Origin: Mytilus californianus
Taxonomy: Eukaryota
DNA: 64,000 nt
Direction: 5' to 3'
NCBI RefSeq assembly: GCF_021869535.1
Contig: NW_026262679.1
Coordinates: 92,775,982-92,839,981, forward strand
This document shows positions 4,976-29,300 of the stretch, piece by piece. How positions within the stretch are numbered: position 1 is the first letter of the stretch; each line of letters begins with the position of its first letter. Made by a program: the position numbers and the translations under genes. Under the pieces are notes generated by a model that saw nothing but the letters and a program-made list of their open reading frames with translations, had not been told where the DNA came from and did not search any database.

Positions 4976-6757
4976 TTTTTATATGACCGCAAAAATTTTT
5001 GCGGTCGTATATTGGTATGACGTTGGCGTCATCGTCGTCGTTGTTGTCTTCGTCCTGCGTCATCCGAAGACACATTGGTTTTCGCACTCTAACTTTAGTT
5101 TAAGTGAATGGATCTCTATGAAATTTTACCATAAGGTTCAATACCACAAAAAGAAGGTTGGGATTGATTTTGGGGGTTATGGTACTAACAGTTAAGGAAT
5201 TAGGGGCCAAAAAGGGGCCAAAAATAAGCATTTTTGTAACTTCCAGACAAAACTTGTGTGTTAGTGTATGGATCTCTCTGACATTGTACCACAAGGTTCC
5301 ATATCACAAAGGGAATGCTGGGATTGATTTTGGGGGTAATTGCCTCAAAATATTAGGAATTAGGGGCCAAAAAAGGGGCAAAAAACAAGCATTTTTCTAG
5401 TTTCATGACAATAACTTGTGTGAAAGTGTATCCATCTTTCTGAAATTGTACTACAAGGTTCCATATCACAAAGGGAAAGCTGGGTTTGAGTTTGGGGGTA
5501 ATTGCCCGAAACGTTTAGGAATAAGGGGCCAAAAAGGGGCCAAAAATAAGCATTTTTCTAGTTTCCAGACAATAACTTGTGTTCAAGTGTATGGATCTCT
5601 CTGAAATTGTACTGCAAGGTACCATACCACAAAGGGAAGGCTGGGATTGAGTTTGGGGGTGATGAATCATAAGGGGGTTCAAAAAATTGGGGGGGGGGGG
5701 ATTTTTTTTTTTTCCTTTTTTTTTTCTTTTAAAATTTTCCATTTTAAGTTGGTTATTTCTGATTTATATTTAAAAGCAAATAACAATGATATGGTAGGAG
5801 ATACACACCAAACAGGATGTGTAAATTATTATATAATAAGTATTGTGCAATAGCAAGAAATTTTCAATTGCACAGTATTGCACAATAGCAAGAAATCTTC
5901 AATTGCACAGTATTGCGCAATAGCAAGAAATCTTTAATTGCACAGTATTGCGCAATAGCAAGAAATATCCAATAGCACAATATTGCGCAATAGCAAGAAA
6001 TTGTCAATTGTGCAGTATTGCGCAAAAGAAGATACTTCGTATAAATTGCTTATTTCTTGACCAATTTCAATGGGGTTTTATTCTTGAATTCTTGGGGTTC
6101 TTTAATATGCTGAATCTAACCGTGTATTAAGTTTTTGGATTTTGGGCCCCATTTTTAAATTGGTCCACATTGAGGTCCAAAGGGTCCAAAATTAAACTAA
6201 GTTTGATTTCATCAAAAATTGAATTCTTAGGGTTCTTTGATATGCTGAATCTAAACATGTATTTAGATTTTTGATTATGGGCCCAGTTTTCAAGTTGGTC
6301 CAAATCGGGGTCCAAAATTAAACTTTGTTTGATTTCAACAAAAATTGAATATATGGGGTTATTTGATATGCTGAATCTAACCATGTATTTAGATTTTTGA
6401 TTTTTGGGCCCCGTTATCATTTTTGTCCACATTGAGGTCAAAAGGGTCCAAAATTAAACTTTGTTTGATTTCATCAAAAATTGAATTCTTGGGGTTCTTT
6501 GATATGCTGAATCTAACCATGTATTTAGATTTTGGATATTGGACCATAATAGGTGAATGTCCAATTTAAAATTTTTAAGTTCTTAGACCACATTCATTCT
6601 GTGTCAGAAACCTATGCTGTGTCAAATATTTAATCACAATCCAAATTCAGAGCTGTATCAAGCTTGAATGTTGTGTCCATACTTGCCCCAACTGTTCAGG
6701 GTTCGACCCCTGCGGTCGTATCAAGCTGCGCCCTGCGGAGCATTTTATTTTTTATTT
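4976..6757 (+). mobile_element. Composite non-autonomous element, family A, copy 1. Its parts in order: hairpin head, GTC-rich microsatellite, roughly 146-bp satellite in 4 units, G/T homopolymer, 35-bp repeat array, roughly 135-bp satellite in about 4 units, conserved tail.
   Basis: Head palindrome 'gaccgcaaaaatttttgcggtcgtata'. The tail reads '...ccccaactgttcagggttcgacccctgcggtcgtatcaagctgcgccctgcggagcattttatt'. It shares the same ordered modules with 12493-14585 and 25882-29300. Confidence 0.8.
5843..6035. repeat. 35-bp tandem repeat (about 6 units), each unit near-palindromic. The same array occurs at 13388-13610 and 26793-27020.
   Basis: 'tattgcgcaatagcaagaaatcttcaattgcacag' is repeated directly with no spacers. 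Confidence 0.85.
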
Positions 6758-6778
6758 GTATATTATTTTTTTTAATAG

Positions 6779-6874
6779 CCAGTGACTTGTGTAGCTGTAT
6801 CCAAAGATAGCAGATACTTTGCCTGTGGTGGAATGGACTGTATGGTCAGACTGTATGATTTCAATACAGGAAAG
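6779..6874 (+). CDS. WD40-repeat gene exon, first clear WD repeat: PVTCVAVSKDSRYFACGGMDCMVRLYDFNTGK
   Basis: Acceptor ttaatAG at 6777-6778 and donor GTAAAT at 6875. It is 32 codons long and in phase 0. Confidence 0.8.
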
Positions 6875-7230
6875 GTAAATAAGGTTCTGTTAAAATGAAT
6901 AAAAGGTGCTGTGAGGTATACATCAGTGAGGAAATAACAAAAAACACCCAATAAAAAACCAGAAGACATCTTTATTGATAACATATGGTCTTCAACAATA
7001 TGTAAGTCTCTCTACAATATGCCAAGCTCAAACTAGTCCTGTGTCTAGAAAACTACCAAATTTTCTGGACTGTAAATCTATGAGGTGGATAGGTGGAAGG
7101 GTTGATTTTTTTTTGGCCAGAATCCTGGAAAAATCTTACGACAGGTCAAAGTGACGGATAAGTTAAGGGTCCAAAATGTATCCACTGATAAGTTTTGGTA
7201 AGTATAAGCTCAAGAAAGAATGTATTTTAT

Positions 7231-8112
7231 TAGTCCCCTACCCACGAAGTTGAAAAGGACTTATGGTTTGCACTCTGTCCGAGTGTCTGTCTGTCTGTCC
7301 ATCAGTCAGTCCGGCAAATCAGTTTTCCACACTTTTTTTCTTCATGCTTGAAGATATTGATTTGATATTTGGTATATAGTTTTATCATGACTAGTTACAG
7401 ATCAAGTTCAAATTTTGTTCCGGTCTGATGATTTTGTGCAGAGTTATGGTCCTTGGACTTAGGAAATTCACGCAAGTAAAAGTTTTCCACACTTTTTTTT
7501 GTCATGCTTAAAGATATTGATTTGATATTTGGTATATAGTTTTATCATGACTAGTTACAGATCAAGGTCGAATTTTGTTCTGGTCTGATGATTTTATGCT
7601 GAGTTATGGTCCTTGGACTTAAAAAATTCACGCAAGTTATCAGTTTTCTGCACTTTTTTTGTCATGCTTAAAGGTATTAATTTGATTTTTGGTATATAGT
7701 TTTATCATGACTAGTTACAGATCAAGTTCAAATATTGTTGCGGTCTGATGATTTCGAGCAGAGTTATGGTCCTTGGACTTAAAAAAATTCAAGAAAGTAA
7801 ACAGTTTTCCGCATTTTTTTTCAACATGCTTGAAGATATTGATTTGATATTTGGTATATAGTTTTACCATGACAAGTTACAGATCAAGTTCAAATTTGGT
7901 TCAGTTCGGATGATTTTGTTTGGCAGAGTTATGGTCCTTGAACTTAGAAAATTCACTCAAATAATCTGTTTTCCACACTTTTTTTTGTTATGCTTGAACA
8001 TGTTGAAGATATTGATTTGATATTTGTTATAAAGTTTACACCATGACAAGTTATAGATCAAGTTAAAATTTTGTCCAAGTACAATGGATTTTTAACCGGA
8101 AGGGGACTATGT
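7231..8112 (+). mobile_element. TIR-flanked element carrying a GTC-rich microsatellite and an internal tandem array of about 125 bp in about 6 units
   Basis: The TIR is 'tagtcccctaccc' at 7231 and 'ggaaggggacta' at 8098, with a possible TA target duplication. The internal unit is 'cagttttccacactttttttgtcatgcttaaagatattgatttgatatttggtatatagttttatcatgactagttacagatcaag...'. Confidence 0.65.
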
Positions 8113-8488
8113 ATTGCCATGCAATACTCTCAGAATGCTTGTTCTATTTAAAATGCAATACTCTTAAATTTACGACTTTCAAGATAATATTCTGTTTGCA
8201 AAATAAAGCCGCAGTTACTTTGTATATGATCAGGTTAGCCATAATGCAAAATCTAAATTGCTTTCCCCATAATGTGCCGCAATTCATACTGTTTAAAACA
8301 TTTGTCATCTGTTTAGGACATCATATTATTTTAATTTGATTTATTTGTTTTGGGGGATTTTTTTGTTGTTTTCCAATCTCTCCATACATTTATATGCTTA
8401 TTTTTCTAGGCAATGCATACGTTTAATAGAACATGTATCTATTAATTTCAACCTTTAGAAGACATACTACTTACTTTATTGTTTTTAG

Positions 8489-8613
8489 GAGCTCCATACA
8501 TTTAGAGGTCATGCTAATGCTATCACCAGTGTGTGTTTTGTTGGACAGTCCATGTTATGTAGTGCTGGATTAGACAATGCTGTCAGTGTTTGGCATATAG
8601 ATCAAGGTCACAG
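8489..8613 (+). CDS. WD40-repeat gene exon: ELHTFRGHANAITSVCFVGQSMLCSAGLDNAVSVWHIDQGHR
   Basis: Acceptor ttttAG at 8487-8488 and donor GTACTT at 8614. It carries a GH...VW WD40 signature. Confidence 0.85.
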
Positions 8614-11311
8614 GTACTTTCAAATATCCTTTTGATTTTTATAGATAGTTTTGATAATTTGTAGACTTATTCAAGAACAATTAAGTTTCCAATATCTTTT
8701 GGACTTCAAAGGAGTAAGTTCATGAAGGCTTAAATTTGGCCCTAAGATTTTGATGTGTTTTTAATCAGGCCAAAATACTACAAATTTCACATAGAAATAG
8801 TTGTGATATAACTATTAATACAAAAAACTTCTTTTTGGCACTTCTCATTTAAAACGACGAAGAAATGGCCCCTCAAGTATGCATTATTTATGTTGTAACG
8901 TCAGTTTCGGTCAAATTTTTCTTAACAGTTTTTAACATAAATAACTTTGGCTGCCACCCCTGATCCTTTTGTGTCGGTATTCAATATCATCATTGGCAAC
9001 TTTTGGCTACTTGACATTTTGGATCCTAGGTTGGGGCGAAGGGTTTCTTCAATCTTTTAGGGTTGAAATATTCACACAATCATCGTTTTTGGACAATATA
9101 TCCAAAATGTACTGACTTTGAAACCTGGAATGCAGCCTTATGAAGAGACTTGTTTAACCTAGTAGTAAGGCTTTTGAAATAGATCCATTTAATAACCAAA
9201 TATTGGCCATTTTGAAATTTTATGATAAACTTGAAATTCAAGGCCATATTTGGCTTAAGGTAGCACTACAGTCTAACAATGATTTTTTGAAGATATTTTT
9301 TTTATCACATAATTTTGAAGTAAGTATTATTCTGCACAGTTTGTAAAAATCCCAAAGTCATTATCATATCACAACAGGGAGTAAATTGATAATGAACTTA
9401 TGTAAATAAAAGCACATGTAATTGATCTAAATATATAGGCATTTGGGAGGGGCTAATATGTCAATCATCTGTTGATACCAGTGTCCAGCTGTTAATCCCT
9501 GACCACAAGATAAATATCTCATTGCATTGCAACAAAACTAATTTATAAAACATGGAAGTTTAGAACAGAGAAAAAGAAAAAGATATGAATAGGAAAAAAT
9601 TTAAAGGGAAAAAATCTACCAAAATGAAAAAAAAACTATGGAAAAGAGTGTGAAAGTATCTTTGAAAGCCTCTGACTGCCTGTATAAATTTCTCGTCTTT
9701 GGTCTTCTACATTTAAAAATAATTTTAGGCATTTTAACTAATTTTAAGTTTATGTGAAATTTTTTCATTCCATGAAACTCATAAATCATGTTGGACAGTC
9801 TATTTTCAAGAAGGGGATGGTCTTGATCTTTTTATGGACATGTATTTTAATTTTAATATTTTAGCTAATTTCAGTCATCATGGTCATATTATATTTCTTT
9901 TTAAAATTCAAATGAAAAGTATTCTTTATAGTGAGAATAATGATGTTAAATATTAATTATGATGCAGCTGGCCAATCCTGTTATTCTCTTATCTTAGACT
10001 GTCTTTTCAGAGGCGGAGCTTTGTCTTTATTTAATTACTACATCACAGATGTTGGTCAAATCTGTGACGTCAAACTCCCGCCAAATGCCAAGTTAGTGTT
10101 ACACAGTGCACACAAAATGCAAATTTTACAGCATTAGAGCATCAAAGACACAATGTTTAGTGGTTCTATTGATAAAGTAATGGTGTCAAAACCCTCCTGG
10201 GGTGTTCCCAGTGGAATTTTTGTATTTATGTGGCATTTATAGGGGTTCTTAAGAGGAAATTCAGTTTTAAGGTCATTTCTCAGAATAATTTTTCATGAGA
10301 ATTGTAAGGAAAAAATGAAAATAGAAACGTTATGGGTACCCCCTTTGTCTTGACTTTGATATATGTGATTGAAGGGAGTATTTTCTACAATACCGTGTCC
10401 CAGTTTTTGGATAATTTGTTTCTAAATGAATTTATAGGTCTCCAAAGATGAAAGGTGAAATGAGGTTTGGCATCCAGCAGTAAAAATAATATATCTTATT
10501 ACTGGAGGCATATATCAAAAATCTGATACACGGTTTTGTAGATTGTGAATGGTTGATTAAAGGGATGAAAACAAATTTTTACTACCATTTGACCTGAATG
10601 TGCCATTTTCATCCAAGTTGGAAGACCACTTTATTGGCAATTAAGGAGCTATATTTTGAGATTAATCATACCAAAAATAAATTTATCTATAGATTAAGAA
10701 AGAGTTATATTTCAGCTTTAAAATGAATTAAAGATTTTAAAAATCCATTGAGTAGTTTTGGAGAAATTAATCTTTAAAGACTGTTGGTTGGAGTCAGAAA
10801 ATTCTGACTGTAGTGCTACCTTAAAGAGAACCTTGTCCATTAGACCACAATCTTAAATTTACTAATTAAGAAAATCAATTACATGTTAATTAATTACATT
10901 TCACAGTCTCAAAAATTATCCCTGACCCTATCAGGACTAAAGTAATGAGATTCCCATAATGCAACATCATTTCTGAATTTGTCCATTTTACTATGTATAT
11001 CATCCTCCATTTACTAGATGAATAGATCCAAAATGTTTAGATAGTTGTTCAAGTCGTAATGTTTGCTTTGCATAGTATATCCAACCAGGTAATTTAAATG
11101 ATCTTAGGATCAATTATGACCTTGATACATTAACATATTTCATTTTTAAAAATGATTGATTATTTTCTAAAAGCAGATGACACAGATGTCTTTACCCTTG
11201 CAAAGGTGAAAACATTTTTGCGATATCTTTCAGATTTATGTAAAATTATGGTGATTAAAAAGGAAAAATATTGTTAAATTTAGACTTTAAGAAAGTGTGT
11301 TTTTTTTGTAG

Positions 11312-11461
11312 GATACATGTTTTGAGTCAGCACAATAGAAGAGTACAGTCAGTTGCCTCAGACAAGGCTGGAAAATTCATTGCATCAGCTTCATGGGATT
11401 GTACTGTGAAAGTATGGAATGCTGTTAAAGGGGACAAATCTTGTGAATTATTGGTTGGAAG
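11312..11461 (+). CDS. WD40-repeat gene exon: IHVLSQHNRRVQSVASDKAGKFIASASWDCTVKVWNAVKGDKSCELLVG
   Basis: Acceptor ttgtAG at 11310-11311 and donor GTAAGA at 11462. It falls inside track ORF 11271-11465 and contains the WD motif 'SWDCTVKVW'. Confidence 0.85.
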
Positions 11462-11597
11462 GTAAGAAAAATTAAAATCTTGTACCCTTCACAAATATTT
11501 GATATGGATTTATGATTGTTTATGGGTATATAGAGATGTACAAAAACATTGTGATATTTGTGCAAATTAAGATAGAAAGGGTAAAACAAGAAAAAAG

Positions 11598-11812
11598 TAC
11601 TGTAAATTCAGAAATTATTACGATGTCTTTATTATTGCGAAAAATGCGATAGGGTTATAATCGCAATAATTTAAACTCGCATTTTGAAATTTTTTTTGTG
11701 AATTAAACAGGATTTTTCTCAATATCGCAAAAATTAAAATCGTATTTTAGTCTAAAATGACAAAATCGCAATAATAAATGCACGCAATAATTTCTGAATT
11801 TACAGTATCCAC
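11598..11812. mobile_element. MITE of about 215 bp with TIR 'ctgtaaattcagaaattatt(a/g)cg'
   Basis: Left end 'ctgtaaattcagaaattattacgatg' and right end 'gcacgcaataatttctgaatttacag'. It lies in the intron between exons 11312-11461 and 11918-12023. Confidence 0.65.
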
Positions 11813-11917
11813 AAAAATAAGTTTAACAGTATAAAATTTCAAAGTTAAATTTCTACAGAAATCAAATGTAAAGCTGTTACCATGTACAATTTATATTGAT
11901 TCCTGTGTCAATTTCAG

Positions 11918-12023
11918 CCAAGTGAACTGTGTTGACTTCCACCCAGAAGGTCAGCTGATCGTTACGGGAAGCTGGGATGCAACACTGAAGATCTGGGATA
12001 TATTCCACAGAAAAAGAAAAGCT
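11918..12023 (+). CDS. WD40-repeat gene exon: QVNCVDFHPEGQLIVTGSWDATLKIWDIFHRKRKA
   Basis: Acceptor tttcAG at 11916-11917. The donor GTATGT at 12024 is assigned with less certainty. The WD motif is 'SWDATLKIWD'. Confidence 0.7.
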
Positions 12024-12492
12024 GTATGTATTGCATTGGATATTTAAGGATGTATTTCCATGTTTATAGGAATCTTGTAAAAACATAAACCAGATATTCA
12101 AGGGAATGGAAACATAATTAAAACATTGTGGGGGTATTTTAGATAATTTTGAAGACTTCTTTTACATTAGGGGTCCCTTAATTTAAGGTTTAGGGCAGGG
12201 CTTCCAAAATTATTTTTAGCCAGCCGGACATTTTATATATTATCCTGATTTTAATCCCTTAAGACTAAATAAATAAAAGGCAATTATGGTAATCAGTTGC
12301 CGAGTTGGCCATCCGAATGATTGACATTAAAAAAAAACCGATATTAAACTTTCTTTGATTCAAATTCGAAGTTCTGACATAAACTGTTAAATTGGCAGTG
12401 CATCATTTGAAGTGTGCAACATCAGCGTACTTATATCTGCTTAGACTCTTTATTTGTGCAAAATAACGTTGTCAAAAACTTTACTTTCGTTT

Positions 12493-12545
12493 TTATACGA
12501 CCGCAAAAATTAAAAATTTTTTGGTCGTATATTGGTATGACGTTG

Positions 12546-12577
<32 letters not shown>

Positions 12578-14585
12578 CGGCGTCGTCCGGCGTCGTCCGA
12601 AGACACATTGGTTTTCGCACTCTAACTTTAGTTTAAGTGAATGGATCTCCATGAAATTTCACCATAAGGTTCAATACCACAAAAGGAAGGTTGGGATTGA
12701 TTTTGGGGGTTATGGTACCAACAGTTAAGGAATTAGGGGCCAAAAAGGGGCCAAAAATAAGCATTTTTGTAACTTTCAGACAATAACTTGTGTGTAAGTG
12801 TATGGATCTCTCTGACATGTACCACAAGGTTCCATATCACAAAGGGAAGGCTGTAATTGATTTTGGGGGTAATTGCTTCAAAATTTTAGGAATTAGGGGC
12901 CAAAAAAGGGGCAAAAAACAAGCATTTTTCTAGTTTCATGACAATAACTTGTGTGTAAGTGTTTGGATATTTCTGAAATTGTACTACAAGGTTCCATATC
13001 ACAAAGGGAAAGCTGGAATTGAGTTTGGGGGTAATTGCCCGAAACGTTTAGGAATTGGGGGCCAAAAAGGGGCCAAAAATAAGCATTTTTCTAGTTTCCA
13101 GACAATAACTTGTGTTCAAGTGTATGGATCTCTCTGAAATTGTACTGCAAGGTACCATACCACAAAGGGAAGGCTGGGATTGAGTTTGGGGGTGATGAAT
13201 CATAAGGGGGTTCAAAAAATTGGGGGGGGGGATTTTTTTTTTTTTTTTTTTTCTTTTTTTCCTTTTTTTTTTCTTTTAAAATTTTCCATTTAAAGTTGGT
13301 TATTTCTGATTTATATTTAAAAGCAAATAATAATGATATGGTAGGAGATACACACCAAACAGGATGTGTAAATTATTATATAATAAGTATTGTGCAATAG
13401 CAAGAAATTTTCAATTGCACAGTATTGCACAATAGCAAGAAATCTTCAATTGCACAGTATTGCGCAATAGCAAGAAATCTTCAATTTAACAGTATTGCGC
13501 AATAGCAAGAAATATCCAATAGCACAATATTGCGCAATAGCAAGAAATTGTCAATTGTACAGTATTGCGCAATAGCAAGAAATATTCAATTGCACAGTAT
13601 TGTGCAAAAGAAGATACTTCGTATAAATTGCTTATTTCTTGATCAATTTCAATGGGGTTTTATTCTTGAATTCTTGGGGTTCTTTAATATGCTGAATCTA
13701 ACCGTGTATTAAGTTTTTGGATTTTGGGCCCCGTTTTTAAATTGGTCCACATTGAGGTCCAAAGGGTCCAAAATTAAACTTTGTTTGATTTCAACAAAAA
13801 TTGAATATATGGGGTTCTTTGATATGCTGAATCTAAACATGTATTTAGATTTTAGATTTTTGGCCCAGTTTTCAAGTTGGTCCAAATTGGGGTCCAAAAT
13901 TAAACTTCGTTTGATTTCAACAAAAATTGAATATATGGGGTTCTTTGATATGCTGAATCTTACCATGTATTTAGATTTTTTATTTGTGGGCCCGCTATCA
14001 AATTGGTTCATATTGAGGTCAAAAGGGTCCAAAATTAAACTTTGTTTGATTTCATCAAAAATTGAATTATTGGGGTTCTTTGATATGCCAAATCTAACTG
14101 TGTTTTTAGATTTTTAATTTAGGGTCCCGTTTTTTAAATTTGTCTACATTAAGGTCCAAAGGGTCCAAAATTAAACTTAGTTTGATTTTAACAAAAATTG
14201 AATTCTTCGGGTACTTTGATATGCTGAATCTAAACATGTGTTTAGATTTTTGATTATGGGACCAGTTTTCAAGTTTGTCCAAGTTGGGGTCCAAAATTAA
14301 ACTTTGTTTGATTTCAACAAAAATTGAATATATGGGGTTCTTTGATATGCTGAATCTAACCATGTATTTTGATTTTGGACATTGGACCATAATAGGTAAA
14401 TTAAAAAAATTGAAGTTCTTAGACCACATTCTTTCTGTGTCAGAAACCTATGCTGTGTCAAATATTTAATCACAATCCAAATTCAGAGCTGTATCAAGCT
14501 TGAATGTTGTGTCCATACTTGCCCCAACTGTTCAGGGTTCGACCTCTGCGGTCGTATCAAGCTGCGCCCAGCGAAGCATTTTATT
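12493..14585 (+). mobile_element. Composite element family A, copy 2. It has (GTC)12, 4 units of the 146-bp repeat, a 35-bp array and about 6 units of the 135-bp satellite.
   Basis: Head 'tatacgaccgcaaaaattaaaaattttttggtcgtata' is a perfect 9-bp-arm hairpin. The tail reads '...gcggtcgtatcaagctgcgcccagcgaagcattttatt'. Confidence 0.8.
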
Positions 14586-15294
14586 AAATCTAAACCGGGT
14601 GTTATCTTGACAATGGTAAAACATGGACCAGAGACTGATACGTAAATTCCGTGTACGTTTACAAAGCATGAATGAGTGTAAGTAGCTCTTTCTACGTTAT
14701 TTCTTCAAGAAAATATTCGAAATAAACGTGAGATAAAGGTATCAATGACAATTTAAGCATTTTTTTAAGGAATTAGGATGCATAATTAAATTTCATGTCT
14801 CTGGTTCAAACAACGTGGTTATGACGATTTTTCATTTTCACCTTTTTAATTTTTTCATCAAATCATATTTGTAAACGTATTTCTGATAATTTAAATCTTT
14901 TTGACTAAATTAATTAGATGCAAACCGCTGAAATGTAAGAAAATAACTTTGAATAGACCGATCAATGTCCGGTTAAAAATAGTTTACCTGTCACCTGAAC
15001 AGGTAAATTTCAGCTGTTGGACAACTAATTAGCCTTGATTAAAATGAGAAGGTATTAAAGTAGGGTTTGTATTGATAGTACTTAATGATCATGTCACTTT
15101 TATGACCGGAAATGTGTGGCTGTTAAAGGCAAAAGGTTGGGTCAAAAAGATCGCGAATTATGTTAAAATGACCGTCTCTTAAGCCTTGAAAACTAAAAAG
15201 TAGATGTCTGTTTCATGCTTTGCCCAGCCGGACTTTTACCGAACATTATACAAATGTCCGGAATATATGACCGTTTTGGAAGCCTTGGTTTAGG

Positions 15295-15405
15295 GTTCAT
15301 TTATGGTTAAGGTAAGGTTAGGGTTTGTTCTAGGTTAGAGTTAGGTTAAGGGTCAGTGTTGGTTACAGGTATGGTATGGGTGAGGGTTAGTTTAATATAG
15401 CCCTA
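15295..15405. repeat. Degenerate hexamer array resembling a permuted telomeric TTAGGG repeat (interstitial telomere-like sequence)
   Basis: 'ggttaaggtaaggttagggtttgttctaggttagagttaggttaagggtcagtgttggttacaggtatggtatgggtgagggttag'. It immediately precedes the 15440 element. Confidence 0.5.
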
Positions 15406-15439
15406 TATGGGTTGGGATCCCTAAGGTAATATAATGCCA

Positions 15440-18742: not shown

Positions 18743-19190
18743 GTAAAATTGAACTCTTTATTTTAATGGTTAGAGAAGCAACAGAGAATGTGTCCACTAT
18801 CAGTCCTCTGCAACATATATGCTGATATAAAGCCACAGCAAATCAAACAACAATGCATCAATCAAATTCAGACTATTTTCTGTACTCACCTGGTGGAGGA
18901 AATTCAGGGTTGTTATGAAGTAAATATAACTATTGTCACCCTTGGTTGGTGAATATATAGGATGTCAAAGGAAATCTTACAAATGTCATCATCATGTGAT
19001 AGATATTTGACCAATCAGAAATATTCTTAAATGACGAGGTTTGATAATATACCATATCCATCTTAGACTATCTTGATCCTTCATGTGGACTTAAATCATT
19101 TGTCAGTAAAATTGAAAGGCATGAGAAATTTTACTATTATTAAGTTGAAAAAATAGTCACTATTTTGTTATTGGTCTATATTGATTGTAG

Positions 19191-19294
19191 GATGGGAAAT
19201 TTTTGACGAAAAACTCCATACAGCTTCAGTTAGGTGTATCAAATATGTTGGAGATGGTATGGTAGTGGCAGGATCAGATGATAATACAATGACT
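19191..19294 (+). CDS. WD40-repeat gene exon: WEIFDEKLHTASVRCIKYVGDGMVVAGSDDNTMT
   Basis: Acceptor attgtAG at 19189-19190 and donor GTAAGT at 19295. Confidence 0.8.
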
Positions 19295-19899
19295 GTAAGT
19301 ATAAATTGTTCCAAAATAGTAATATTGTGATGGAGTGAGATTCCACAATCAGTTGATTATTCTATGTCAGTTAAACACATATTATTATACCTTACATATA
19401 TCATAAACAATTCTATTGGGTAACACGTTATCAAGTGACATGGAATAATTCAGTTAATTTTCATTTAATTGCAAGGAAGGACGAATAACCCTAAAAATTT
19501 ACACCAGTGGTGAATAACCCTATTATTCACCGGTGAATAACCTTTTGAGTTTCTTGATTTGTACACGAGTTATCTTCCATGAAAATGATGTCACAGACAC
19601 AAGTAAAGAAAATGGCAACGTTCACGTTACAGGAAGCCTATTGAGTGACGAGGAAACAAGGCTTTGGAAATGCATCTAGTGCTGAGGATATCTCTTATAA
19701 ACGGTCCTTTTCAGGGCCATCAATATTTTACAAAAAGATTCTACCTTTGTTGTACATACAAGAAATACTAAGACACAAATTTATTTTTGAACGTTAACTT
19801 GTGTTTGTTACGATACAGTAAGGTAAGTGCTTTTTCAATGGTTCAAAAGGCCCTTCCACTGTTAGTTCAGTATAATAAAACAATTGTGGCCCTTTAGAA

Positions 19900-19996
19900 G
19901 CGATGAATATCCAAAATTGTCAACCCTAAAAAATTATTTCACTTCAGGCTGTGCCCTCAGTGAAATAACCTTTTCATGTTGACAATTTTGGATATT
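19900..19996. mobile_element. Short MITE-like hairpin element with about 22-bp TIRs
   Basis: Left arm 'gatgaatatccaaaattgtcaac' and right arm 'gttgacaattttggatattcacc'. A related 'gtgaataacc' motif recurs at 19475-19545. Confidence 0.5.
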
Positions 19997-20720
19997 CACC
20001 TTTTCTACGGGCAATAATTGTATATTGTTAGGAGATGCCACAATCAGTTGATAATTCTATGTCAATTAAACACATATTGTTAGGAGATGCTACAATCAGT
20101 AGTTAATTTTATGTCAGTTAAACACATATCCTTGGAAAACACACTGTATATAACAGTAACATTTTGCTCAGAACAACAGTAGTTATAACATTTCCTTATT
20201 TTAACTATAATGGTAGCTGGGATTGACAAATCATGGTAGGAAATTAAATATAAAAAAAAGATTTGTTATCATTGCCAATGAGACAACTCTCCACCAGAGA
20301 CCAAATGATGTTGAAGTTAGCAACTATAGGTCAAGTCCATATTTTTCCAGAATTTAAGATGGTTGTAGACAAATTTCATCTTGAATATGCATGAAATATT
20401 TGCAACTAGACCTTTAATAGTGATGAACAGTCATTGAGATAAATGATAAGGGGGTGAGTTAGAACCCACTTGTTGTAAGGTGCTTTTGACTGATCTTAAT
20501 TGACTGGGATTGCCAGTTTCCCTGTCGAAGGTCTATGGTTCTCTCCAGTTACTCTGGCTTCCTCCACCAAAAAAACCTAGCTACCCACAATGTAGCCAAG
20601 AGTGCTGAAATTGGTTTTAATAACCAGCAATCAATCACATAACCTTTCATAAACTTTTTTACATTTTCCATTTGCTAGAAGAAGTTTGACTGGTATAATC
20701 AAATAGTTATAATATTTCAG

Positions 20721-20878
20721 ATTACAAGTACAAAAGAATCTTTAGGAGGTATGACACTGACAAACTTCACCAAACCTGTATTATGTGTAGCACTTACCAA
20801 AAAGTTGATGGCTGTAGGATCTGAAGATTTTACTTGTACATTGTTTCCAGCACCAAAGGAAAAGGATTTATCAAAGAA
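20721..20878 (+). CDS. WD40-repeat gene exon: ITSTKESLGGMTLTNFTKPVLCVALTKKLMAVGSEDFTCTLFPAPKEKDLSKK
   Basis: Acceptor atttcAG at 20719-20720 and donor GTAAGC at 20879. Confidence 0.8.
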
Positions 20879-21313
20879 GTAAGCATTCAACAAAAAAATT
20901 GGAAAGGGGGGTGGGGGTCTAAACAGTGTTCTGTCAATTAAAAAATTACTGCCATTTTTTAAGCAAAAAATGTTATTTTCAGTCCTATTTTCTGGATGTG
21001 TCCTTTATTTTCATAAATATGTATCTTGAATATCATTTATACAGATTTTGCCATGATTTTCAAGGTTTAGGTAATTGTTTTCCCTAACACAGGCTCACTT
21101 TGCCATTCTTATAAAAACATGTCCATTTGATATATGGAAGAAAGTGTTGGTTGTAGAGGAATTGTTAACGTCTCTTCCTAATCTCTCACTTTCATTTTCA
21201 GGAAAAAGACCTTACATGCATATGCTTGAATTCTTGATACTTTGAATAATTAAATGCTTTTTTGTGACAAGTGTACTGTTTACTTTATTATGTTTATTTA
21301 TTTATTTTTGCAG

Positions 21314-21419
21314 ATCAAAGCTCAAAGTTTTTTCAACTTTAACAGGCCATGTAGGACCAGTAACCAGCTGTACATTTAACCATGAAGGCTCCTTATTGGC
21401 AACAGCAAGCAGGGATGCA
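21314..21419 (+). CDS. WD40-repeat gene exon: SKLKVFSTLTGHVGPVTSCTFNHEGSLLATASRDA
   Basis: Acceptor tttgcAG at 21312-21313 and donor GTAAGT at 21420. It lies within track ORF 21264-21446. Confidence 0.85.
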
Positions 21420-22139
21420 GTAAGTTTTACTGAAACTGTGATATAATTTGTTTCTTGAAGCTTTAGCAAGTTACTTGGACTTTTTTTTAAAGTTTCATAG
21501 ACATTTTACAATTAATGTATAGAGTTATTATCTGCCTTGCAACATATTTTCAGAAAGGATAAATAAAAATATCGGCTGAGTTTCCAAAACAAATAGTTGC
21601 CAGATAGTAACTTGAGTTGCTTTGCATGAATAGGAGTGAAACTTTATACAAATTGAAGACATGGTGAAGTGGAAGAAGCTTAACAATTTTTGGGGTCAAT
21701 AGGTCTATATTCAGTGCCAACTTTCCACTTATCTGTGACTGATTTTGCAGCAGAATTTAAAAAAAACTAAACATGAATAACAACCAGCATCCTTTTGTGT
21801 CATGTTTAAAATTTGAAAAAAAGATAATTAATGATTACATGCACTTAACAATCTGAGGAAAATTTGCATATAAATGTGTCTATTTTTCGTAGAATACTAC
21901 TTTTAAAAGTGTCTGTATAACTATACACAAGCTAACATCTAGATAGCGAAAATTGACGTGTGATTGAAAAAAACATATTTCTTAAATTTCTATTTTTTTG
22001 TAAATCAATGTACTTTACTAATGATTATTTTGCCATAGTTAGATGTTGAAAAGCTATAAAGTTGTATTATCCATAAATATTTTATATATCTTTTATATTA
22101 TAAATTTTTCACCTGCATCTGTATTAAATATAAAATAAG

Positions 22140-22290
22140 GAAACGTGGTATGATTGCCATTGAGACAACTATCCACCAGAGACCAAATGATGTGGACGAA
22201 AGCATCTATAGGTCACCATACAGCCTTCCAATATGAGCAAAACCCATTAATATAGTAAGCTATAAAAGTTCAGTGGACAAAATCAATATA
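22140..22290 (+). mobile_element. SINE-like repeat, head-only copy in a WD40-gene intron
   Basis: 'gtggtatgattgccattgagacaactatccaccagagaccaaatgatg...'. Confidence 0.65.
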
Positions 22291-22353
22291 AATAAAAAAT
22301 TTGTTATCTTATAATTATTTATGTAATATAATATTTATCCCTTTTTCTATCAG

Positions 22354-22470
22354 AGTATAAGAATTTACCAGGTGACCTGGGAAACAGAACCACTTCTAAT
22401 GAATGTCCTGAGTGATTGTCATAAAGACTGGATAACTGGATGTCAGTGGTCAAATATAGCGGACTTCATA
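22354..22470 (+). CDS. WD40-repeat gene exon: SIRIYQVTWETEPLLMNVLSDCHKDWITGCQWSNIADFI
   Basis: Acceptor tctatcAG at 22352-22353 and donor GTAAGT at 22471. Confidence 0.85.
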
Positions 22471-22953
22471 GTAAGTACTACAGACTTTATAGTAACCCAA
22501 AAGATTGAAGATCTGCGTAAGGTCTCAAATTCTCTTTGTATAAATTTATGGCTTCTAGTACACAGAGACAGTTTTTGGCCCTGCTCCCTTGTTCATGGTT
22601 CAAGAGACTTTGAAAGTTTTGCATAGCTTACATGTTAATTTATGTGTTGCTATTTTACCAGTTTGTTTATTGTCACTAATATGAAGAAAAAAAATTGTGT
22701 ATATAGAAAACAATTTGGGTGCAACTGAAATGTTGATAAGTCCAAATGCAAACAACAATATTAAGCCTGGATTGTTATTTCAGGTAATAATTCTTTGATG
22801 ATTATGTTTAATGTAATGCTGATTGTAAGAATTAGAATAAAGAAAATTACCAAATAAAATTCAGATAAAAATCAGAGAAATGCCTATTAAAATTAAATGT
22901 GTTTGAAATCATAAAGGTCAACTAAATGACCACTAATATTTTTATTTTTTCAG

Positions 22954-23061
22954 GTGACTTCTTCTGTTGATTTCAACTTAAAGGTTTGGGATTCTGCAAC
23001 AGGAACAGAGAAATCAACACTAACAGGTCACATGGCCGGAATTAATGCTATATCCTATAGT
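22954..23061 (+). CDS. WD40-repeat gene exon: VTSSVDFNLKVWDSATGTEKSTLTGHMAGINAISYS
   Basis: Acceptor ttttcAG at 22952-22953 and donor GTAAGT at 23062. Confidence 0.85.
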
Positions 23062-23854
23062 GTAAGTAATTTTCATAAGGAATCAAAATATCTAGGGAAT
23101 TCCTTTGAGCTCAATCAATATGTTGAGTGAACTTAAAATTATCTTTACTCTTTTCTTAAGTACTACTGTACAAGATGACTTCATATTTAGTCAGCCCCTC
23201 AGCAGTGGTGAGTTGTAATAACATAACAATCAATGTCTCTTCAGGAATGCTCGAGGTAAGGTGTGAGCCCTTTCCGATCTGTCAGACACCTACTCCTGGT
23301 TTTCCAATACTTTAGGAAGAGAGGGGGCATACTTAGCATAGTGACATATGCATTTTCAGACTTTTGAACTTGGTTATTTTTTAGCAAACTATTCAAAAGA
23401 CAGTTGTGTAATCAACTCTTCCTTCAGTTTTTCAACCCAGTTCCTTGAAGCTTTACAGAAAGTTTGCTCTCCTATGGAAGTTGTAATTTTTACCATTTTC
23501 CTGAGTGAAAAAACAATTAAATTCTTTATTAAAATGCACACAAACTATTTACTGCGATTTTTCCCTTTGAGTCATTTTGTTTTTACCATTCCCTAATTAT
23601 TGAGAATTCTTTTGTCATAACATAAATCATTACAAATTAAGCAATTATATTACAACTGGTCTTTGATTTCTATTTTATCATTAGCTATTTAAAAAAAGTA
23701 TTGAGTACAAATGTATTGAAATCATTATTGTTCATTTGAAACAGCTTGATATAGAAATGCATACCTAAATTAAGCAGATGGTATTTGAGCAGACCTAAAA
23801 ATTCATCAAAGATACCAGGCTTATTACATTTTAAATAATGCTTGATACTGATAG

Positions 23855-24027
23855 TATACACCTTATCGCTATTTGTCCGCCATTACTGGACATCACACAG
23901 GTTCCCATAAAATTTTGACGTCACAATACAAAATATCTGACGCCACAATGGAAAAGGGATTGTTATATGACGTCAAAAGTTCAAGCGGGACAGATTCTCG
24001 GGTCAGCCGGGAATAGCGATAAGGTGT
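23855..24027. mobile_element. MITE of about 170 bp with 17-bp perfect TIRs and TA target-site duplication (Tc1/mariner-like)
   Basis: Left end 'TA|cacc ttatcgctatttg' and right end 'gaatagcgataaggtg|TA'. It lies in the intron between exons 22954-23061 and 24468-24624. Confidence 0.7.
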
Positions 24028-24467
24028 ATTGAAATAGAATTGACCGCTTTAAACACATGTATGGTTAATGCTGTAAATAAGTAACATATAAGCCTATTTT
24101 AAAAAATAATAATCCAAAATTTTAGTCCACTGTTAAATGCTAGATAATTATTCTTCAGCTCTTAAGGAAATTGGGGAGGGGGGTAAACTGGTTATGTTTG
24201 TCCTTCCTTCCATCCATGTTTCTGTCCATTCTTCCGTCTATGTTTCTGTCTGTCCATTCCCTCTGTCCCATTACTGTTTGATTTTATTTTTCTGAAGAAC
24301 TATTAATCAGAGCTTCCTAAATTTAGGCATCAAGCTTCATGTGAGCAAAATTTACTTTTTGATATATTTTCACATCCATTACTCATAAACTTCCTGTTTA
24401 CCGAAAACTTATAGATTGGGTATCATAAATAAGAAATCTCTCTCAGTTTAACTTGTTTGTTCTATAG

Positions 24468-24624
24468 TATGGTTGTATAGTGTCCTGCAGTAGTGATGGA
24501 GCAGTCAAAGTTTGGTCACAGAAAGGTACAGAGATCACAACACTGTATGGACATACACAGAGAGTCAATGGATGTGATATGATTGTCAAAACAAGCAAAG
24601 ATGAGACAGAAGAGGAAGAAGAGG
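24468..24624 (+). CDS. WD40-repeat gene exon: YGCIVSCSSDGAVKVWSQKGTEITTLYGHTQRVNGCDMIVKTSKDETEEEEE
   Basis: Acceptor tctatAG at 24466-24467 and donor GTAAAT at 24625. It lies within track ORF 24480-24728. Confidence 0.85.
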
Positions 24625-25350
24625 GTAAATATTTTAACACTACTGTTTGTCCAGGGATCTCAAAAAAGCTTTCTTTCAAAATTCAAGAATCTTTGCGTTC
24701 ATTTATTATTGAGATTGTTGCACAATGAGCAACAGTGTGTGGTTGGTTATTGTGGTTTCAGGAAATGCTGAAGACAAAAAATGCCACCATAGTTTAAAAT
24801 ACAAGTTTTAATTTTTGCGAAAACTAATCCTGTTGCACTTTTTGCAATTATCAAAACATTACAAAAATGTCTGTGTTAACAGTATTGTACTATAAATAAC
24901 AAACAAGATAAAAAGAATAGTATAGTACTTTTAAATTTCATTTAGGTATAAATATTTATTCACTTTGTTATCAGAAATATTTTTTCTTCAATTCTTTGCA
25001 AACTGCATTTTTCAATCATAACAATCGATTGTTTTAAGGCACTGAAATATGTAGGCATAAATATAGATGTTGTCATGACACACGTGCAGGCAATATTATT
25101 ATAAAGATATAAAGATCAATTGAAATTAATTAATACTAAATTTCATTGAAACCACTTTATTGTGTCACCTGGCAGTGTCCAGCTGGGGTGATTCAGGGAT
25201 TTCACCTGTAGTAGTCTTGTTTCAGCATTTGTGTCACATTTTAATCCAATTCTCATTGAAAACTGTTAAACAGAATCCTTCAAACTTGCACACATTTCTC
25301 TACATGACTTGAAGTTGTAATGAATATCAATTTGCCATTTTTTTTTAAAG

Positions 25351-25499
25351 ATGCAAACACATCCTGGGCAGATATGGTAGAATCAGCAGAGGCTGCTAAG
25401 AAGGCAAAGAAATCCAAACGTCCAGGTGTGAGGATGGATGATGTACTTGTAGCTACTTGTGGAGATGACGGTACAGTCAGGGTCTGGCAACCATTGCAG
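25351..25499 (+). CDS. WD40-repeat gene exon: ANTSWADMVESAEAAKKAKKSKRPGVRMDDVLVATCGDDGTVRVWQPLQ
   Basis: Acceptor tttaaAG at 25349-25350 and donor GTAAAA at 25500. Confidence 0.85.
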
Positions 25500-25881
25500 G
25501 TAAAATAATGTGCATTTTTTTTTTAGTGTGTTTTTGTCAATTTTAAAGATGTAGGCAAAGGTGGTACCTTATTCAGAGTATCAGATGAGGTTTGTGTGTT
25601 TTTTGTCCCCAGTGCAAGGCTGTGAAGTGGACAGAGAAATACTGGGCTTCCATATGTGCATTTGTGTGTTAGTCTGGTCTTGTAAGCACTCTCATGTGTA
25701 CAATTCTTCAGAATTTTTATGAAATTTGAATCAAAGGTTGATATCAGGAATGTCTCAGATAAGTTCTAAAATAGGTGTGGATCATCTATTTTTATCTCTC
25801 GTGGTTTTGATATGAGTTTGTATTTTCCACAGCTTAGGTTTATTTTTTATAATTGTCTTGTAATTGTTTGTCTGTACATCT

Positions 25882-25957
25882 GTCCTTTTTATACGACCGC
25901 AAAAATTGAAAATTTTTTGGTCGTATATTGGTATGACGTTGGCATCGTCGTCGTCGA

Positions 25958-25988
<31 letters not shown>

Positions 25989-28900
25989 TGGCGTCGTCCG
26001 AAGACACATTGGTTTTCGCACTCTAACTTTAGTTAAAGTGAATGGATCTCCATGAAATTTTACCATAAGGTTCAATACCACGAAAGGAAGGTTGGGATTG
26101 ATTTTGGGGGTTATGGTACCAACAGTTAAGGAATTAGGGGCCAAAAAGGGGCCAAAAATAAGCATTTTTGTAACTTCCAGACAATAACTTGTGTGTAAGT
26201 GTATGGATCTCTCTGACATTGTACCACAAGGTTCCATATCACAAAGGGAAGGCTGTAATTGATTTTGGGGGTAATTGCCTCAAAATTTTAGGAATTAGGG
26301 GCCAAAAAAGGGGCAAAAAACAAGCATTTTTCTAGTTTCATGACAATAACTTGTGTGTAAGTGTTTGGATATTTCTGAAATTGTACTACAAGGTTCCATA
26401 TCACAAAGGGAAAGCTGGAATTGAGTTTGGGGGTAATTGCCCGAAACGTTTAGGAATTGGGGGCCAAAAAGGGGCCAAAAATAAGCATTTTTCTAGTTTC
26501 CAGACAATAACTTGTGTTCAAGTGTATGGATCTCTCTGAAATTGTACTGCAAGGTACCATACCACAAAGGGAAGGCTGGGATTGAGTTTGGGGGTGATGA
26601 ATCATAAGGGGGTTCAAAAAATTTGGGGGGGGATTTTTTTTTTTCTTTTTTTTTCTTTTTTTCCTTTTTTTTTTTCTTTTAAAATTTTCCATTTTAAGTT
26701 GGTTATTTCTGATTAATATTTAAAAGCAAATAATAATGATATGGTAGGAGATACACACCAAACAGGATGTGTAAATTATTATATAATAAGTATTGTGCAA
26801 TAGCAAGAAATTTTCAATTGCACAGTATTGCACAATAGCAAGAAATCTTCAATTGCACAGTATTGCGCAATAGCAAGAAATCTTCAATTGCACAGTATTG
26901 CGCAATAGCAAGAAATATCCAATAGCACAATATTGTGCAATAGCAAGAAATTGTCAATTGTACAGTATTGCACAATAGCAAGAAATATTCAATTGCACAG
27001 TATTGTGCAAAAGAAGATACTTCGTATAAATTGCTTATTTCTTGATCCATTTCAATGGGGTTTTATTCTTGAATTCTTGGGTATTTAATATGCTGAATCT
27101 AACCGTGTATTAAGTTTTTGGATTTTGGGCCCCGTTTTTAAATTGGTCCACATTGAGGTCCAAAGGGTCCAAAATTTAACTTTGTTTGATTTCATCAAAA
27201 ATTGAATTATTGGGGTTCTTTGATATGCCGAATCTAACCGTGTATTTAGATTCTTAATTTTTGGTTCCGTTTTCAAATTGGTCTACATTAAGGTCAGAAG
27301 GGTCCAAAATTAAACTTAGTTTGATTTTAACAAAAATTGAATTTTTAGGGTTCTTTGATATGCTGAATCTAAACATGTATTTAGATTTTTGATTATGGGC
27401 CCAGTTTTCAAGTTGGTCCAAATCGGGGTCCAAAATTTAACTTTGTTTGATTTCAACAAAAATTGAATATATGGGGTTCTTTGATATGCTGAATCTAACC
27501 ATGTATTTAGATTTTTGATTTTTGGGCCCCGTTATCAACTTTGTCCACATTGAGGTCAAAAGGGTCCAAAATTAAACTTTGTTTGATTTCATCAAAAATT
27601 GAATTCTTGGGGTTCTTTGATATGCTGAATCTAACCATGTATTTAGATTTTTTATTTGTGGACCCGCTATCAAATTGGTTCATATTGAGGTCAAAAGGGT
27701 CCAAAATTAAACTTTGTTTGATTTCATCAAAAATTGAATTATTGGGGTTCTTTGATATGCCAAATCTAACCGTGTATTTAGATTTTTAATTTTGGGTCCC
27801 GTTTTTAAATTGGTCTACATTAAGGTCCAAAGGGTCCAAAATTAAACTTAGTTTAATTTTAACAAAAATTGAATTCTTGGGGTTCTTTGATATGCTGAAT
27901 CTAAACATGTGTTTAGATTTTTGATTATGGGCCCAGTTTTCAAGTTGGTCCAAGTTGGGGTCCAAAATTAAACTTTGTTTTATTTCAACAAAAATTGAAT
28001 ATATGGGGTTCTTTGATATGCTGAATCTAAACATGTATTTAGATTTTAGATTTTTGGCCCAGTTTTCAAGTTGGTCCAAGTTGGGGTCCAAAATTAAACT
28101 TTGTTTGATTTCAACAAAAATTGAATATATGGGGTTCTTTGATATGCTGAATCTAACCATGTATTTAGATTTTTTATTTGTGGGCCCGCTATCAAATTGG
28201 TTCATATTGAGGTCAAAAGGGTCCAAAATTAAACTTTGTTTGATTTCATCAAAAATTTCATTATTGGAGTTCTTTGATATGCCAAATCTAACCGTGTATT
28301 TAGATTTTTAATTTTGGGTCCCGTTTTTTAAATTGGTCTACATTAAGGTCCAAAGGGTCCAAAATTAAACTTAGTTTGATTTTAAGAAAAATTGAATTTT
28401 TGGGGTTCTTTGATATGCTGAATCTAAACATGTGTTTAGATTTTTGATTATGGGACCAGTTTTCAAGTTGGTCAAAGGTGGGGTCCAAAATTAAACTTTG
28501 TTTGATTTCAACAAAAATTGAATATATGGGGTTCTTTGATATGCTGAATCTAAACATGTATTTAGATTTTAGATTTTTGGCCCAGTTTTCAAGTTGGTCC
28601 AAATTGGGGTCCAAAATTAAACTTTGTTTGATTTCAACAAAAATTGAATATATGGGGTTCTTTGATATGCTGAATCTAACCATGTATTTAGATTTTTTAT
28701 TTTGTGGGCCCTCTATCAAATTGGTTCATATTGAGGTCAAAAGGGTCCAAAATTAAACTTTGTTTGATTTCATCAAAAATTGAATTATTGGGGTTCTTTG
28801 ATATGTCAAATCTAACCGTGTTTTAAGATTTTTAATTTTGGGTCCCGTTTTTTAAATTGGTCTACATTAAGGTCCAAAGGGTCCAAAATTAAACTTAGTT

Positions 28901-29300
28901 TGATTTTAACAAAAATTGAATTCTTGGGGTACTTTGATATGCTGAATCTAAACATGTGTTTAGATTTTTGATTATGGGACCAGTTTTCAAGTTTGTCCAA
29001 GTTGGGGTCCAAAATTAAACTTTGATTGATTTCAACAAAAATTGAATATATGGGGTTCTTTGATATGCTGAATCTAACCATGTATTTTGATTTTGGACTT
29101 TGGACCATAATAGGTAAATTAAAAAAATTGAAGTTCTTAGACCACATTCTTTCTGTGTCAGAAACCTATGCTGTGTCAAATATTTAATCACAATCCAAAT
29201 TCAGAGCTGTATCAAGCTTGAATGTTGTGTCCATACTTGCCCCAACTGTTCAGGGTTCGACCTCTGCGGTCGTATCAAGCTGCGCCCAGCGAAGCATTTT
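25882..29300 (+). mobile_element. Composite element family A, copy 3. Its 135-bp satellite array is expanded to about 16 units (27040-29110).
   Basis: It has the same head, (GTC)n, 146-bp repeats, G/T tract, 35-bp repeats and tail as copies 1 and 2. Only the 135-bp array length differs. Confidence 0.8.
27040..29110. repeat. Tandem satellite with a period of about 135 bp and about 16 units, internal to family-A copy 3
   Basis: Unit 'ttgaattcttggggttctttgatatgctgaatctaaccatgtatttagattt..gggccc.gtttt.aaattggtc.acattgaggtccaaagggtccaaaattaaactttgtttgatttcatcaaaaa' recurs head-to-tail. The track ORFs on both strands here are artefacts. Confidence 0.85.

Follow-up and report, generated by a model that had tools for sequence, protein, structure and literature searches.

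The stretch analysed here is 64 kb of Mytilus californianus DNA (contig NW_026262679.1, positions 92,775,982 to 92,839,981 of the forward strand; hereafter the window, numbered from its first letter), an AT-rich, intron-rich eukaryotic sequence with about 32% G+C. It holds one composite repeat in three collinear copies, delimited with Tandem Repeats Finder (TRF) and self-BLAST, and these are very probably independent insertions of a single non-autonomous, non-coding family of Helentron-derived elements (HINEs) in the introns of a TEP1-like WD40 gene. The copies are all on the + strand and span 4976-6749 (c1, 1774 bp), 12490-14585 (c2, 2096 bp) and 25886-29303 (c3, 3418 bp) by BLAST and end alignment; the limit of c1 within its 3' oligo-T is ambiguous up to 6753. 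All testable structural hallmarks of HINEs are found, and the element is a new family, or a set of new members, of the well-described HINE/pearl-like class with variable satellite-like arrays. The locus is a well-resolved addition to the established bivalve link between Helentron-derived transposons and satellite-like DNA: within single copies one can follow the construction of a higher-order repeat and the shortening of an array by one in-register exchange, and the locus shows array arrangements being handed on through transposition. Unit-number variation among HINE copies has already been described as a phenomenon of this kind in oysters, clams and fruit flies, and no new question is opened. 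The case is mildly unusual in its three consecutive unrelated arrays, the higher-order repeat in one copy and the readable footprint of contraction; its value lies in helping to annotate the repeats of mussel-like genomes, in which elements of this sort usually stay 'unclassified', and in a concrete locus for the study of array-length polymorphism.

Anatomy and boundaries of the composite element

When the ends of the three copies were aligned together with their flanks, similarity was found to begin at TTTTTATA(C/T)GACCGC and to stop at GC(G/A)(G/A)AGCATTTTATT. These ends are sharp, the flanks have nothing in common, and no target-site duplication (TSD) is visible at any of the three loci. 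The original prediction had placed the copies with ends within 0-8 bases of those refined here by self-BLAST and end alignment, and all of the modules it listed are present, collinear, in the same order and between unrelated flanks; its tail ending needs correction for c1, which reads gcggagcattttatt and not gcgaagcattttatt. In each copy the order is oligo-T, subterminal inverted repeat (subTIR) with hairpin, (GTC)n microsatellite, 161-bp array, G/T tract, 35-bp array, 126/135-bp array and a tail of about 210-250 bp.

Outside the 126/135-bp array, and counting substitutions only, c2 and c3 are 98.2% identical in the left part and 99.6% in the tail, while c1 is about 96% identical to either. 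The BLAST identities among copies are lower because of indels in the microsatellite, homopolymer and 35-bp modules. The 126/135-bp array accounts for 261 of 322 bp (81%) and 1317 of 1322 bp (99.6%) of the length differences. The proposal that this array alone differs among the copies was nevertheless too strict, as the (GTC)n tract (36, 39 and 54 nt in c1, c2 and c3), the G/T tract (42, 56 and 56 nt) and the 35-bp array (5.6, 6.6 and 6.6 units) vary too, and small indels are also seen in the loop of the head hairpin and in the tail.

The internal modules all lie on the + strand. The (GTC)n microsatellite, degenerate in c1 (5019-5054; 12539-12597 in c2 and 25935-25998 in c3), is followed by 3.5 units of a tandem repeat (5090-5660, 12623-13193 and 26036-26595) to which TRF assigns a period of 161 bp, in place of the roughly four 146-bp units first reported. 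A homopolymer tract comes next, with the form G(8-12)-A-T/C across the copies (5689-5730 in c1, where it reads G12-A-T/C, 13222-13277 in c2 and 26625-26680 in c3). The 35-bp repeat was delimited by TRF at 5839-6032 in c1, there also from the sequence itself, at 13386-13614 in c2 and at 26789-27017 in c3, where it shows a 70-bp dimer periodicity; each unit contains the 12-bp palindrome TATTGCGCAATA. The last and most variable array occupies 6084-6537 in c1, 13675-14376 in c2 and 27069-29094 in c3. Within the window, the 161-bp repeat, the 126/135-bp repeat and a 159-bp repeat from a related element, x60 (see below), show no mutual similarity, and the 161-bp array has no detectable homology to the approximately 160-bp arrays of other HINE families or to the 126/135-bp repeat (z < 2.5 against shuffles). 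ApaI sites (GGGCCC) occur in many of the 126/135-bp monomers.

None of the ten longest open reading frames in the elements matches a Pfam family above the curated cut-off; the reading frames are read-through of the repeats, and no Rep/helicase frame occurs in the 64-kb window. On the minus strand, the 126/135-bp array can be read without a stop for up to 173 codons (13712-14113, 27789-28307 and 28303-28725). Both 126 and 135 are multiples of 9, and these frames, in which no Pfam family exceeds the cut-off, are probably incidental.

The subterminal inverted repeats that had been proposed are borne out by the alignment of the ends. The 5' subTIR TTTATACGACCGCA, which begins at nucleotide 3 in c2 and c3, pairs at 13 of 14 positions with its inverted 3' partner TGCGGTCGTATcAA, located 26-39 nt from the 3' end; in c1 one further position is mismatched. 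At 11-17 nt downstream of the 5' subTIR lies an inverted repeat (IR), GGTCGTATA, that is complementary to it. Together they form a hairpin at 4978-5011 in c1 (subTIR 4978-4991, TTTATATGACCGCA; IR 5003-5011), 12492-12531 in c2 (subTIR 12492-12505; IR 12523-12531) and 25888-25927 in c3 (subTIR 25888-25901; IR 25919-25927), all on the + strand. Folded as single-stranded DNA, this hairpin has a predicted free energy of -11.9 kcal/mol in c1 (z = -5.4) and -10.9 kcal/mol in c2 (z = -3.9). At the other end, a 17-nt GC stem-loop of the form GCT.GCG...CGC.AGC directly follows the 3' subTIR, with an identical prediction in c1, c2 and x60. The two features together span 6711-6741 in c1 (subTIR 6711-6724; stem-loop 6725-6741), 14547-14577 in c2 (14547-14560; 14561-14577) and 29265-29295 in c3 (29265-29278; 29279-29295), again on the + strand, and the stem-loop ends 8 nt before the end of the element, whose terminus is ATTTTATT. 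The terminal letters are 5' TTTTTATA... and ...CATTTTATT 3', so that the elements start with T5 and finish with TT; the right flank continues as AAAT in c2 and as GTTT in c3, and c1 and c3 are located in intronic polypyrimidine tracts. Between x60 and the family of c1, c2 and c3 (the c family), the subTIRs differ by a compensatory A:T to C:G change at the 5' and 3' ends, which supports a functional pairing of the two subTIRs or a shared recognition sequence.

This anatomy can be set against the published definition of HINEs, which asks for subTIRs of 12-15 nt set 2-4 nt in from the 5' end, a 3' subTIR among the last ~60 nt with a short palindrome behind it, 8-35 nt before the end, terminal runs of T, T-rich or TT targets, no TSD, and optional microsatellite and tandem repeats (PMC4067079). 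The copies contain a subTIR pair matched at 13 of 14 positions, within the 11-15 nt range and with the 5' member 2-4 nt from the terminus; a 3' subTIR inside the final ~60 nt, with a stem-loop behind it whose distance from the 3' end falls in the 8-35 nt range; a nearby IR complementary to the 5' subTIR, as in DINE-1 and Cg_HINE; T-rich termini; and, in every copy, a GTC microsatellite after the left flank with central tandem repeats in fixed orientation. The pearl/HINE-type mobile element of the original prediction thus agrees with the published definitions (PMC4067079, PMC7492417) on every structural hallmark that could be tested, and the HINE interpretation is supported because this anatomy fits and the features of Helitrons, terminal-inverted-repeat (TIR) elements and short interspersed elements (SINEs) do not. 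A canonical Helitron would have a 5' TC, a 3' CTRR with a hairpin about 11 nt from the 3' end and insertion between A and T, to which the termini TTTTTATA... and ...CATTTTATT do not conform. A tRNA-derived SINE would have a tRNA-like head and a tail of poly(A) or simple repeats; ARAGORN found no tRNA gene in the window and Rfam returned no match at E <= 1 for c2 with its flanks.

A cut-and-paste miniature inverted-repeat transposable element (MITE), moved by a DDE transposase and leaving a putative AA/TT TSD, would follow the older classification of pearl and DTC84. Pearl-like elements were formerly placed among MITEs with a conserved AA 'TSD' (PMC3879986), and Ts do bound the present element on both sides. 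However, neither inverted repeat is at the very terminus, and the two are placed unequally, 3 nt in from the 5' end but 26 nt in from the 3' end; the Ts at the termini also vary, and the flanks show no duplicated bases, as the differing right flanks of c2 and c3 illustrate; the architecture instead fits HINEs, which are tied to Helentron partners (PMC4067079). We therefore consider a TIR-type MITE improbable.

Several points weigh against the assignment of these copies to the HINEs. An autonomous Helentron with matching ends is absent from the window, which was the DNA searched. Mobility and the exact insertion dinucleotide would be read from the boundaries, and the putative kinship with named HINE, pearl or MgE elements is drawn from architecture. 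The 3' subTIR, at 26-39 nt from the end, lies slightly closer than the ~38-60 nt of mite HINEs, although the 60-bp right flank of Cg_HINEs would still accommodate it. For the 3' stem-loop, a small structure, folding gives z-scores of modest size (-0.6 to -2.3).

If the element is a HINE, knowledge of the superfamily suggests how it would move. A Helentron protein (Rep/helicase/endonuclease) acting in trans would recognise the terminal structures, namely the 5' oligo-T, the subTIR with its complementary IR hairpin, the 3' subTIR and the GC stem-loop 8 nt from the T-rich 3' end, and the element would pass by a rolling-circle mechanism through a single-stranded intermediate into T-rich targets without duplicating them. 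The body of the element, (GTC)n and three unrelated arrays of 161, 35 and 126/135 bp, would be carried as cargo.

History of the 126/135-bp array

Monomers were delimited at a conserved 19-mer, which gave 4, 6 and 16 anchors in c1, c2 and c3. The 4, 6 and about 16 units counted previously hold if the terminal partial monomer (T), which runs on into the tail, is included; the numbers of full units are 3, 5 and 15. The satellite itself, described as a 135-bp repeat, is present, but its monomers are a mix of 126 bp (a 9-bp deletion variant) and 135/136 bp. At 10% divergence they fall into four clusters, A, B, C and D, with sub-variants: A is always first, B is 126 bp long and divides into B1 and B2, and C has a variant C'. 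The array of c1 reads A-B1-C-T and that of c2 reads A*-B2-C'-D-B1-T, in which A* is an A/B hybrid. In c3 the order is A-D-B1-C, then C'-D-B1-B2 twice, then C'-D-B1 and T, so that positions 27617-29059 (+) form a higher-order repeat with a four-monomer unit, C'-D-B1-B2, of 522-523 bp present 2.75 times. The copies of this unit are 96.5-97.7% identical to each other, and its four-monomer structure indicates amplification by blocks.

Tandem arrays are error-prone in assemblies, and the differences in unit number might in principle be artefacts in which arrays were collapsed or expanded. The monomer subtypes are more than 10% apart, however, and the copies of the higher-order repeat differ by 2-3.5%, which is enough for unambiguous assembly; the arrays are also ordered and interpretable, down to a precise hybrid monomer. 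An assembly artefact is thus very unlikely.

Monomer A*, with which the c2 array opens, joins an A-type head to a B-type tail, and the last 45 nt of that tail are identical to monomer 11 of c3. It is followed by B2, mirroring the succession of B1 and B2 in the higher-order repeat of c3. To judge from the order and sequence of the monomers, A* is what remains when monomer 1 and a B1 of a c3-like array undergo unequal exchange in register, or slippage, with the loss of 10 monomers, and the c2 array is accordingly read as a contraction. The proposal that the array changes length therefore finds support at the level of single units, in the hybrid junction monomer and the higher-order repeat. More generally, the 126/135-bp array would gain and lose monomers through unequal exchange in register or through slippage: the 16-unit array would have arisen by amplification of the four-monomer 523-bp block, the 6-unit array by contraction of such a long array to leave the A-head/B-tail first monomer, and the 4-unit arrangement would have been present already in the source copy of its subfamily.

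Whether the arrays changed inside individual copies, as had also been put forward, is a separate matter. A change in situ after insertion at each of the three loci, and not inheritance from differing sources, is possible but somewhat doubtful. Outside the array c2 and c3 are 98.2-99.6% identical, yet their arrays are 10 monomers apart; the hybrid first monomer of c2 corresponds to one discrete exchange event; and the three copies lie within 25 kb in one orientation, an arrangement that permits ectopic exchange. Monomers 2-3 of c1 are also nearer to monomers 3-4 of c3 (98.5% identity) than their flanks are (about 96%; Fisher p = 0.048), a weak hint of exchange between copies. On the other side, an independent copy in a 1.5-kb marine-metagenome contig (L001), about 5% diverged from c1, has the same array end, ...B1a-C-T, which places the c1 arrangement before the insertion of c1; the 4-unit array of c1 was thus inherited from the source copy of the subfamily and not made at this locus. 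We also attempted to date the contraction of c2 relative to the split of c2 and c3 by the divergence of the higher-order repeat. The c2 block differs from the three c3 repeat copies by 9, 12 and 15 mismatches, with no significant preference for any one of them, and these differences are too small to discriminate. A change after insertion is thus a weaker suggestion than a change by units and, for c1, is opposed by inheritance.

Related elements and known systems

A truncated fourth copy, x41, of the c1 subfamily lies at 41312-41563 (+). It is truncated at the 5' side, consists of the terminal partial monomer and the tail, is 91% identical to the tail of c1 and has a degenerate subTIR. In a related family, x60 (59381-60374, +), the head, TATACGCCCG-TTTA-CGGGaCGTAT, and the tail (84-89% identical) are homologous to those of the c family, and about two units resemble the 35-bp repeat. 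What sets x60 apart is its (GTCC)n microsatellite, an unrelated 159-bp array of 3.6 units and the lack of a 126/135-bp array, so that the 126/135-bp block is either an insertion in the c family or a deletion in x60, between ...CAATTTCAA and GTTCTT....

Motifs from the tail and from a monomer were used to scan metagenome, viral and prokaryotic collections. Among the metagenome contigs a single match, L001, was obtained, with the tail motif, and the viral and prokaryotic genome collections gave no match to these motifs. In L001 (1-1496, 1.8x coverage) the first ~512 bp are 95.1% identical to c1 and comprise the array end and tail, cut 8 nt short of the end of the element; the remainder is bacterial-looking coding sequence. 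Given the switch to this unrelated sequence and the low coverage, L001 is probably a chimera of assembly, and its junction not a biological one.

These relatives bear on the possibility that a composite repeat block was spread by local segmental duplication and not by transposition. Such an origin would suit the finding of c1, c2 and c3 on one strand, within 25 kb and in one gene. It does not suit the abrupt end of similarity at identical termini between flanks without common sequence, nor the truncated copy 12 kb further on, the related family 30 kb away and the further copy in an unrelated metagenome contig, and we regard it as highly improbable.

At least four further elements of the same build, belonging to other HINE families, occur in the window. 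A second family, with the head TTTTTATGCCCC(C)...GGGGCAT, is represented on the + strand at 33892-34478, 42729-43756 and 60457-61080 and by a head only at 4618; its head is followed by GTCY/GTAC units and a 161-bp array of 2.8 units, and its tail ends in CATTCCCCATTTATT. The copy at 42729 contains an apparently inserted palindromic segment at about 43291-43550. A third family, at 7225-8149 (+), has the head TTTTATTAGTCCCCT, (GTCT)n, a 160-bp array of 4.6 units, the palindrome GTATTGC-CAT-GCAATAC and, on the 3' side, a perfectly matching partner, AAGGGGACTA; a distant relationship (z = 9.7) links its array with that of the ATGCCCC family. A different type of element extends from 15438 to about 16500, with a (GTC/GGC)n tract and a 192-bp array of 3.6 units; its head motif GTCGAGCCTTCGAC...AAAAAGCAAGGC is repeated in the tail as a direct and not an inverted copy, and it adjoins the palindrome GGTTCCGCGGAACC.

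Among described systems, the closest in build is Cg_HINE of Crassostrea gigas (Vojvoda Zeljko et al. 2020), which has a 5' subTIR of 11-14 nt with a complementary IR at 1-12 or 1-20 nt, GTCY, GTCC or GTCK microsatellites, and central repeats of 140-180 bp in arrays that in most cases stay below 5 units and reach 29 at most; two consecutive arrays occur in some elements, related flanks can hold unrelated arrays, and introns are frequent locations (PMC7492417). The present element shares with Cg_HINE the subTIR and IR, a microsatellite of the GTC/GTCY type, arrays in fixed orientation, the 3' palindrome in the last ~60 nt, T-rich ends, the lack of a visible TSD and the location in introns. Like the Cg_HINE 'group 2', the c family and x60 pair related flanks with unrelated arrays, and multi-array elements are found in both systems. 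By architecture, three consecutive unrelated arrays (161, 35 and 126/135 bp) stand here against one or two in Cg_HINE; one of these arrays has a short 35-bp unit, the microsatellite is the trinucleotide (GTC)n where tetranucleotides are commoner in Cg_HINE, and the host, judging by protein identities, is not an oyster.

The resemblance extends to DINE-1 and the HINEs of Thomas, Vadnagara and Pritham (2014; PMC4067079), with which the element shares subTIRs, the nested 5' IR, the microsatellite, central tandem repeats, the 3' stem-loop, terminal Ts and the lack of coding sequence; unlike DINE-1, it lacks the DINE-1 core sequence. As in pearl, MgE and DTC84, the element is a modular bivalve element with terminal or subterminal inverted repeats and a flanking microsatellite, and those systems have up to about 6 core repeats of about 160 bp; compared by architecture, it differs in its two additional arrays, with up to 15 units. 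The pearl family CvA/CvE/CvG reportedly goes back to Gaffney et al. in 2003, and MgE of Mytilus galloprovincialis to Kourtidis et al. in 2006. Pearl, DTC84 (of Donax) and MgE have the same architecture as HINEs (PMC3879986, PMC7492417). MgE is likewise intronic, but was reported to lack a microsatellite (PMC3879986), which the present element has.

The variable array also invites comparison with satellite emergence of the DINE-TR1 type. In Drosophila, the internal tandem repeat of a Helentron derivative expanded there past the usual ~5 units. Tandem-repeat-carrying Helentrons have been proposed as seeds of satellite DNA (hypothesis cited in PMC7492417). The internal repeat of c3 likewise exceeds the usual ~5 units and has higher-order structure. 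Unlike in DINE-TR1, the expansion amounts to only about 2 kb inside an otherwise intact element, with no evidence of a genomic satellite.

Host genes, orientation and splice sites

The three copies lie in introns of a many-exon TEP1-like NACHT/WD40 gene (343-36570, +). Its relatives are distant only, the best being 'telomerase protein component 1' with 38% identity over 534 aa of concatenated exons. The copies c1 and c3 end close to splice acceptors: the end of c1 lies 43 nt before the acceptor of the exon at 6794-6877, and that of c3 only 9 nt before the acceptor AG of the exon that begins at 29313. With 9 nt left to the acceptor, the branch point and most of the polypyrimidine tract must come from c3 itself. 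The proximity of both copies to acceptors fits an insertion into polypyrimidine tracts.

All 11 HINE-type elements in the window (starting at 4618, 4976, 7225, 12490, 15438, 25886, 33892, 41312, 42729, 59381 and 60457) are on the + strand, sense to both genes found there, an anecdotal count from 64 kb. If equal numbers were expected on the two strands, a ratio of 11:0 would have p ~0.001. The GTC/GTCY microsatellite heads are 7:0 by strand, all sense, and dispersed self-matches in the window comprise about 47 kb of direct against 351 bp of inverted repeats. AATAAA does not occur on the sense strand of c1, c2, c3 or x60, whereas TTTATT occurs 2-7 times in each; the 3' terminus ...CATTTTATT reads AATAAAATG on the other strand. 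Since TTTATT is on the sense strand, including the 3' terminus, antisense intronic copies would expose canonical poly(A) signals, and these are a possible reason for the orientation bias.

A strong orientation bias of Helentron-type elements relative to transcription throughout this genome is put forward tentatively, and we consider it rather unlikely. If true, it would imply that integration is strand-specific, into the T-rich strand of introns, or else that antisense copies, which would expose poly(A) signals, are strongly selected against, with sense copies tolerated, or even co-opted as splice-acceptor-proximal sequence. This orientation and splice-site observation is the only part of the analysis that may lead somewhere new, a claim for which genome-wide statistics are needed.

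The second gene in the window encodes a spermine-oxidase-like amine oxidase (Pfam PF01593; 54539-58551, +), with best named relatives in Mizuhopecten (74%) and Tegillarca (70%). These protein identities by themselves mark the host as a bivalve mollusc, plausibly a mytilid. Proteins 90% identical to its 313-aa exon were found only on intronless 1.7-kb transcript contigs.

Two further kinds of repeat were observed. A dispersed family of about 140-190 bp has eight direct copies (3857-4039, 20243, 22125, 47561, 50572, 51913, 55944 and 56206, +) and one inverted copy (45289-45365, -), with no tRNA-like part according to ARAGORN. Near the end of the window, two arrays of a 145-147-bp repeat (62561-62837 and 63656-63984) are unrelated to the HINE arrays and about 80% identical to each other.

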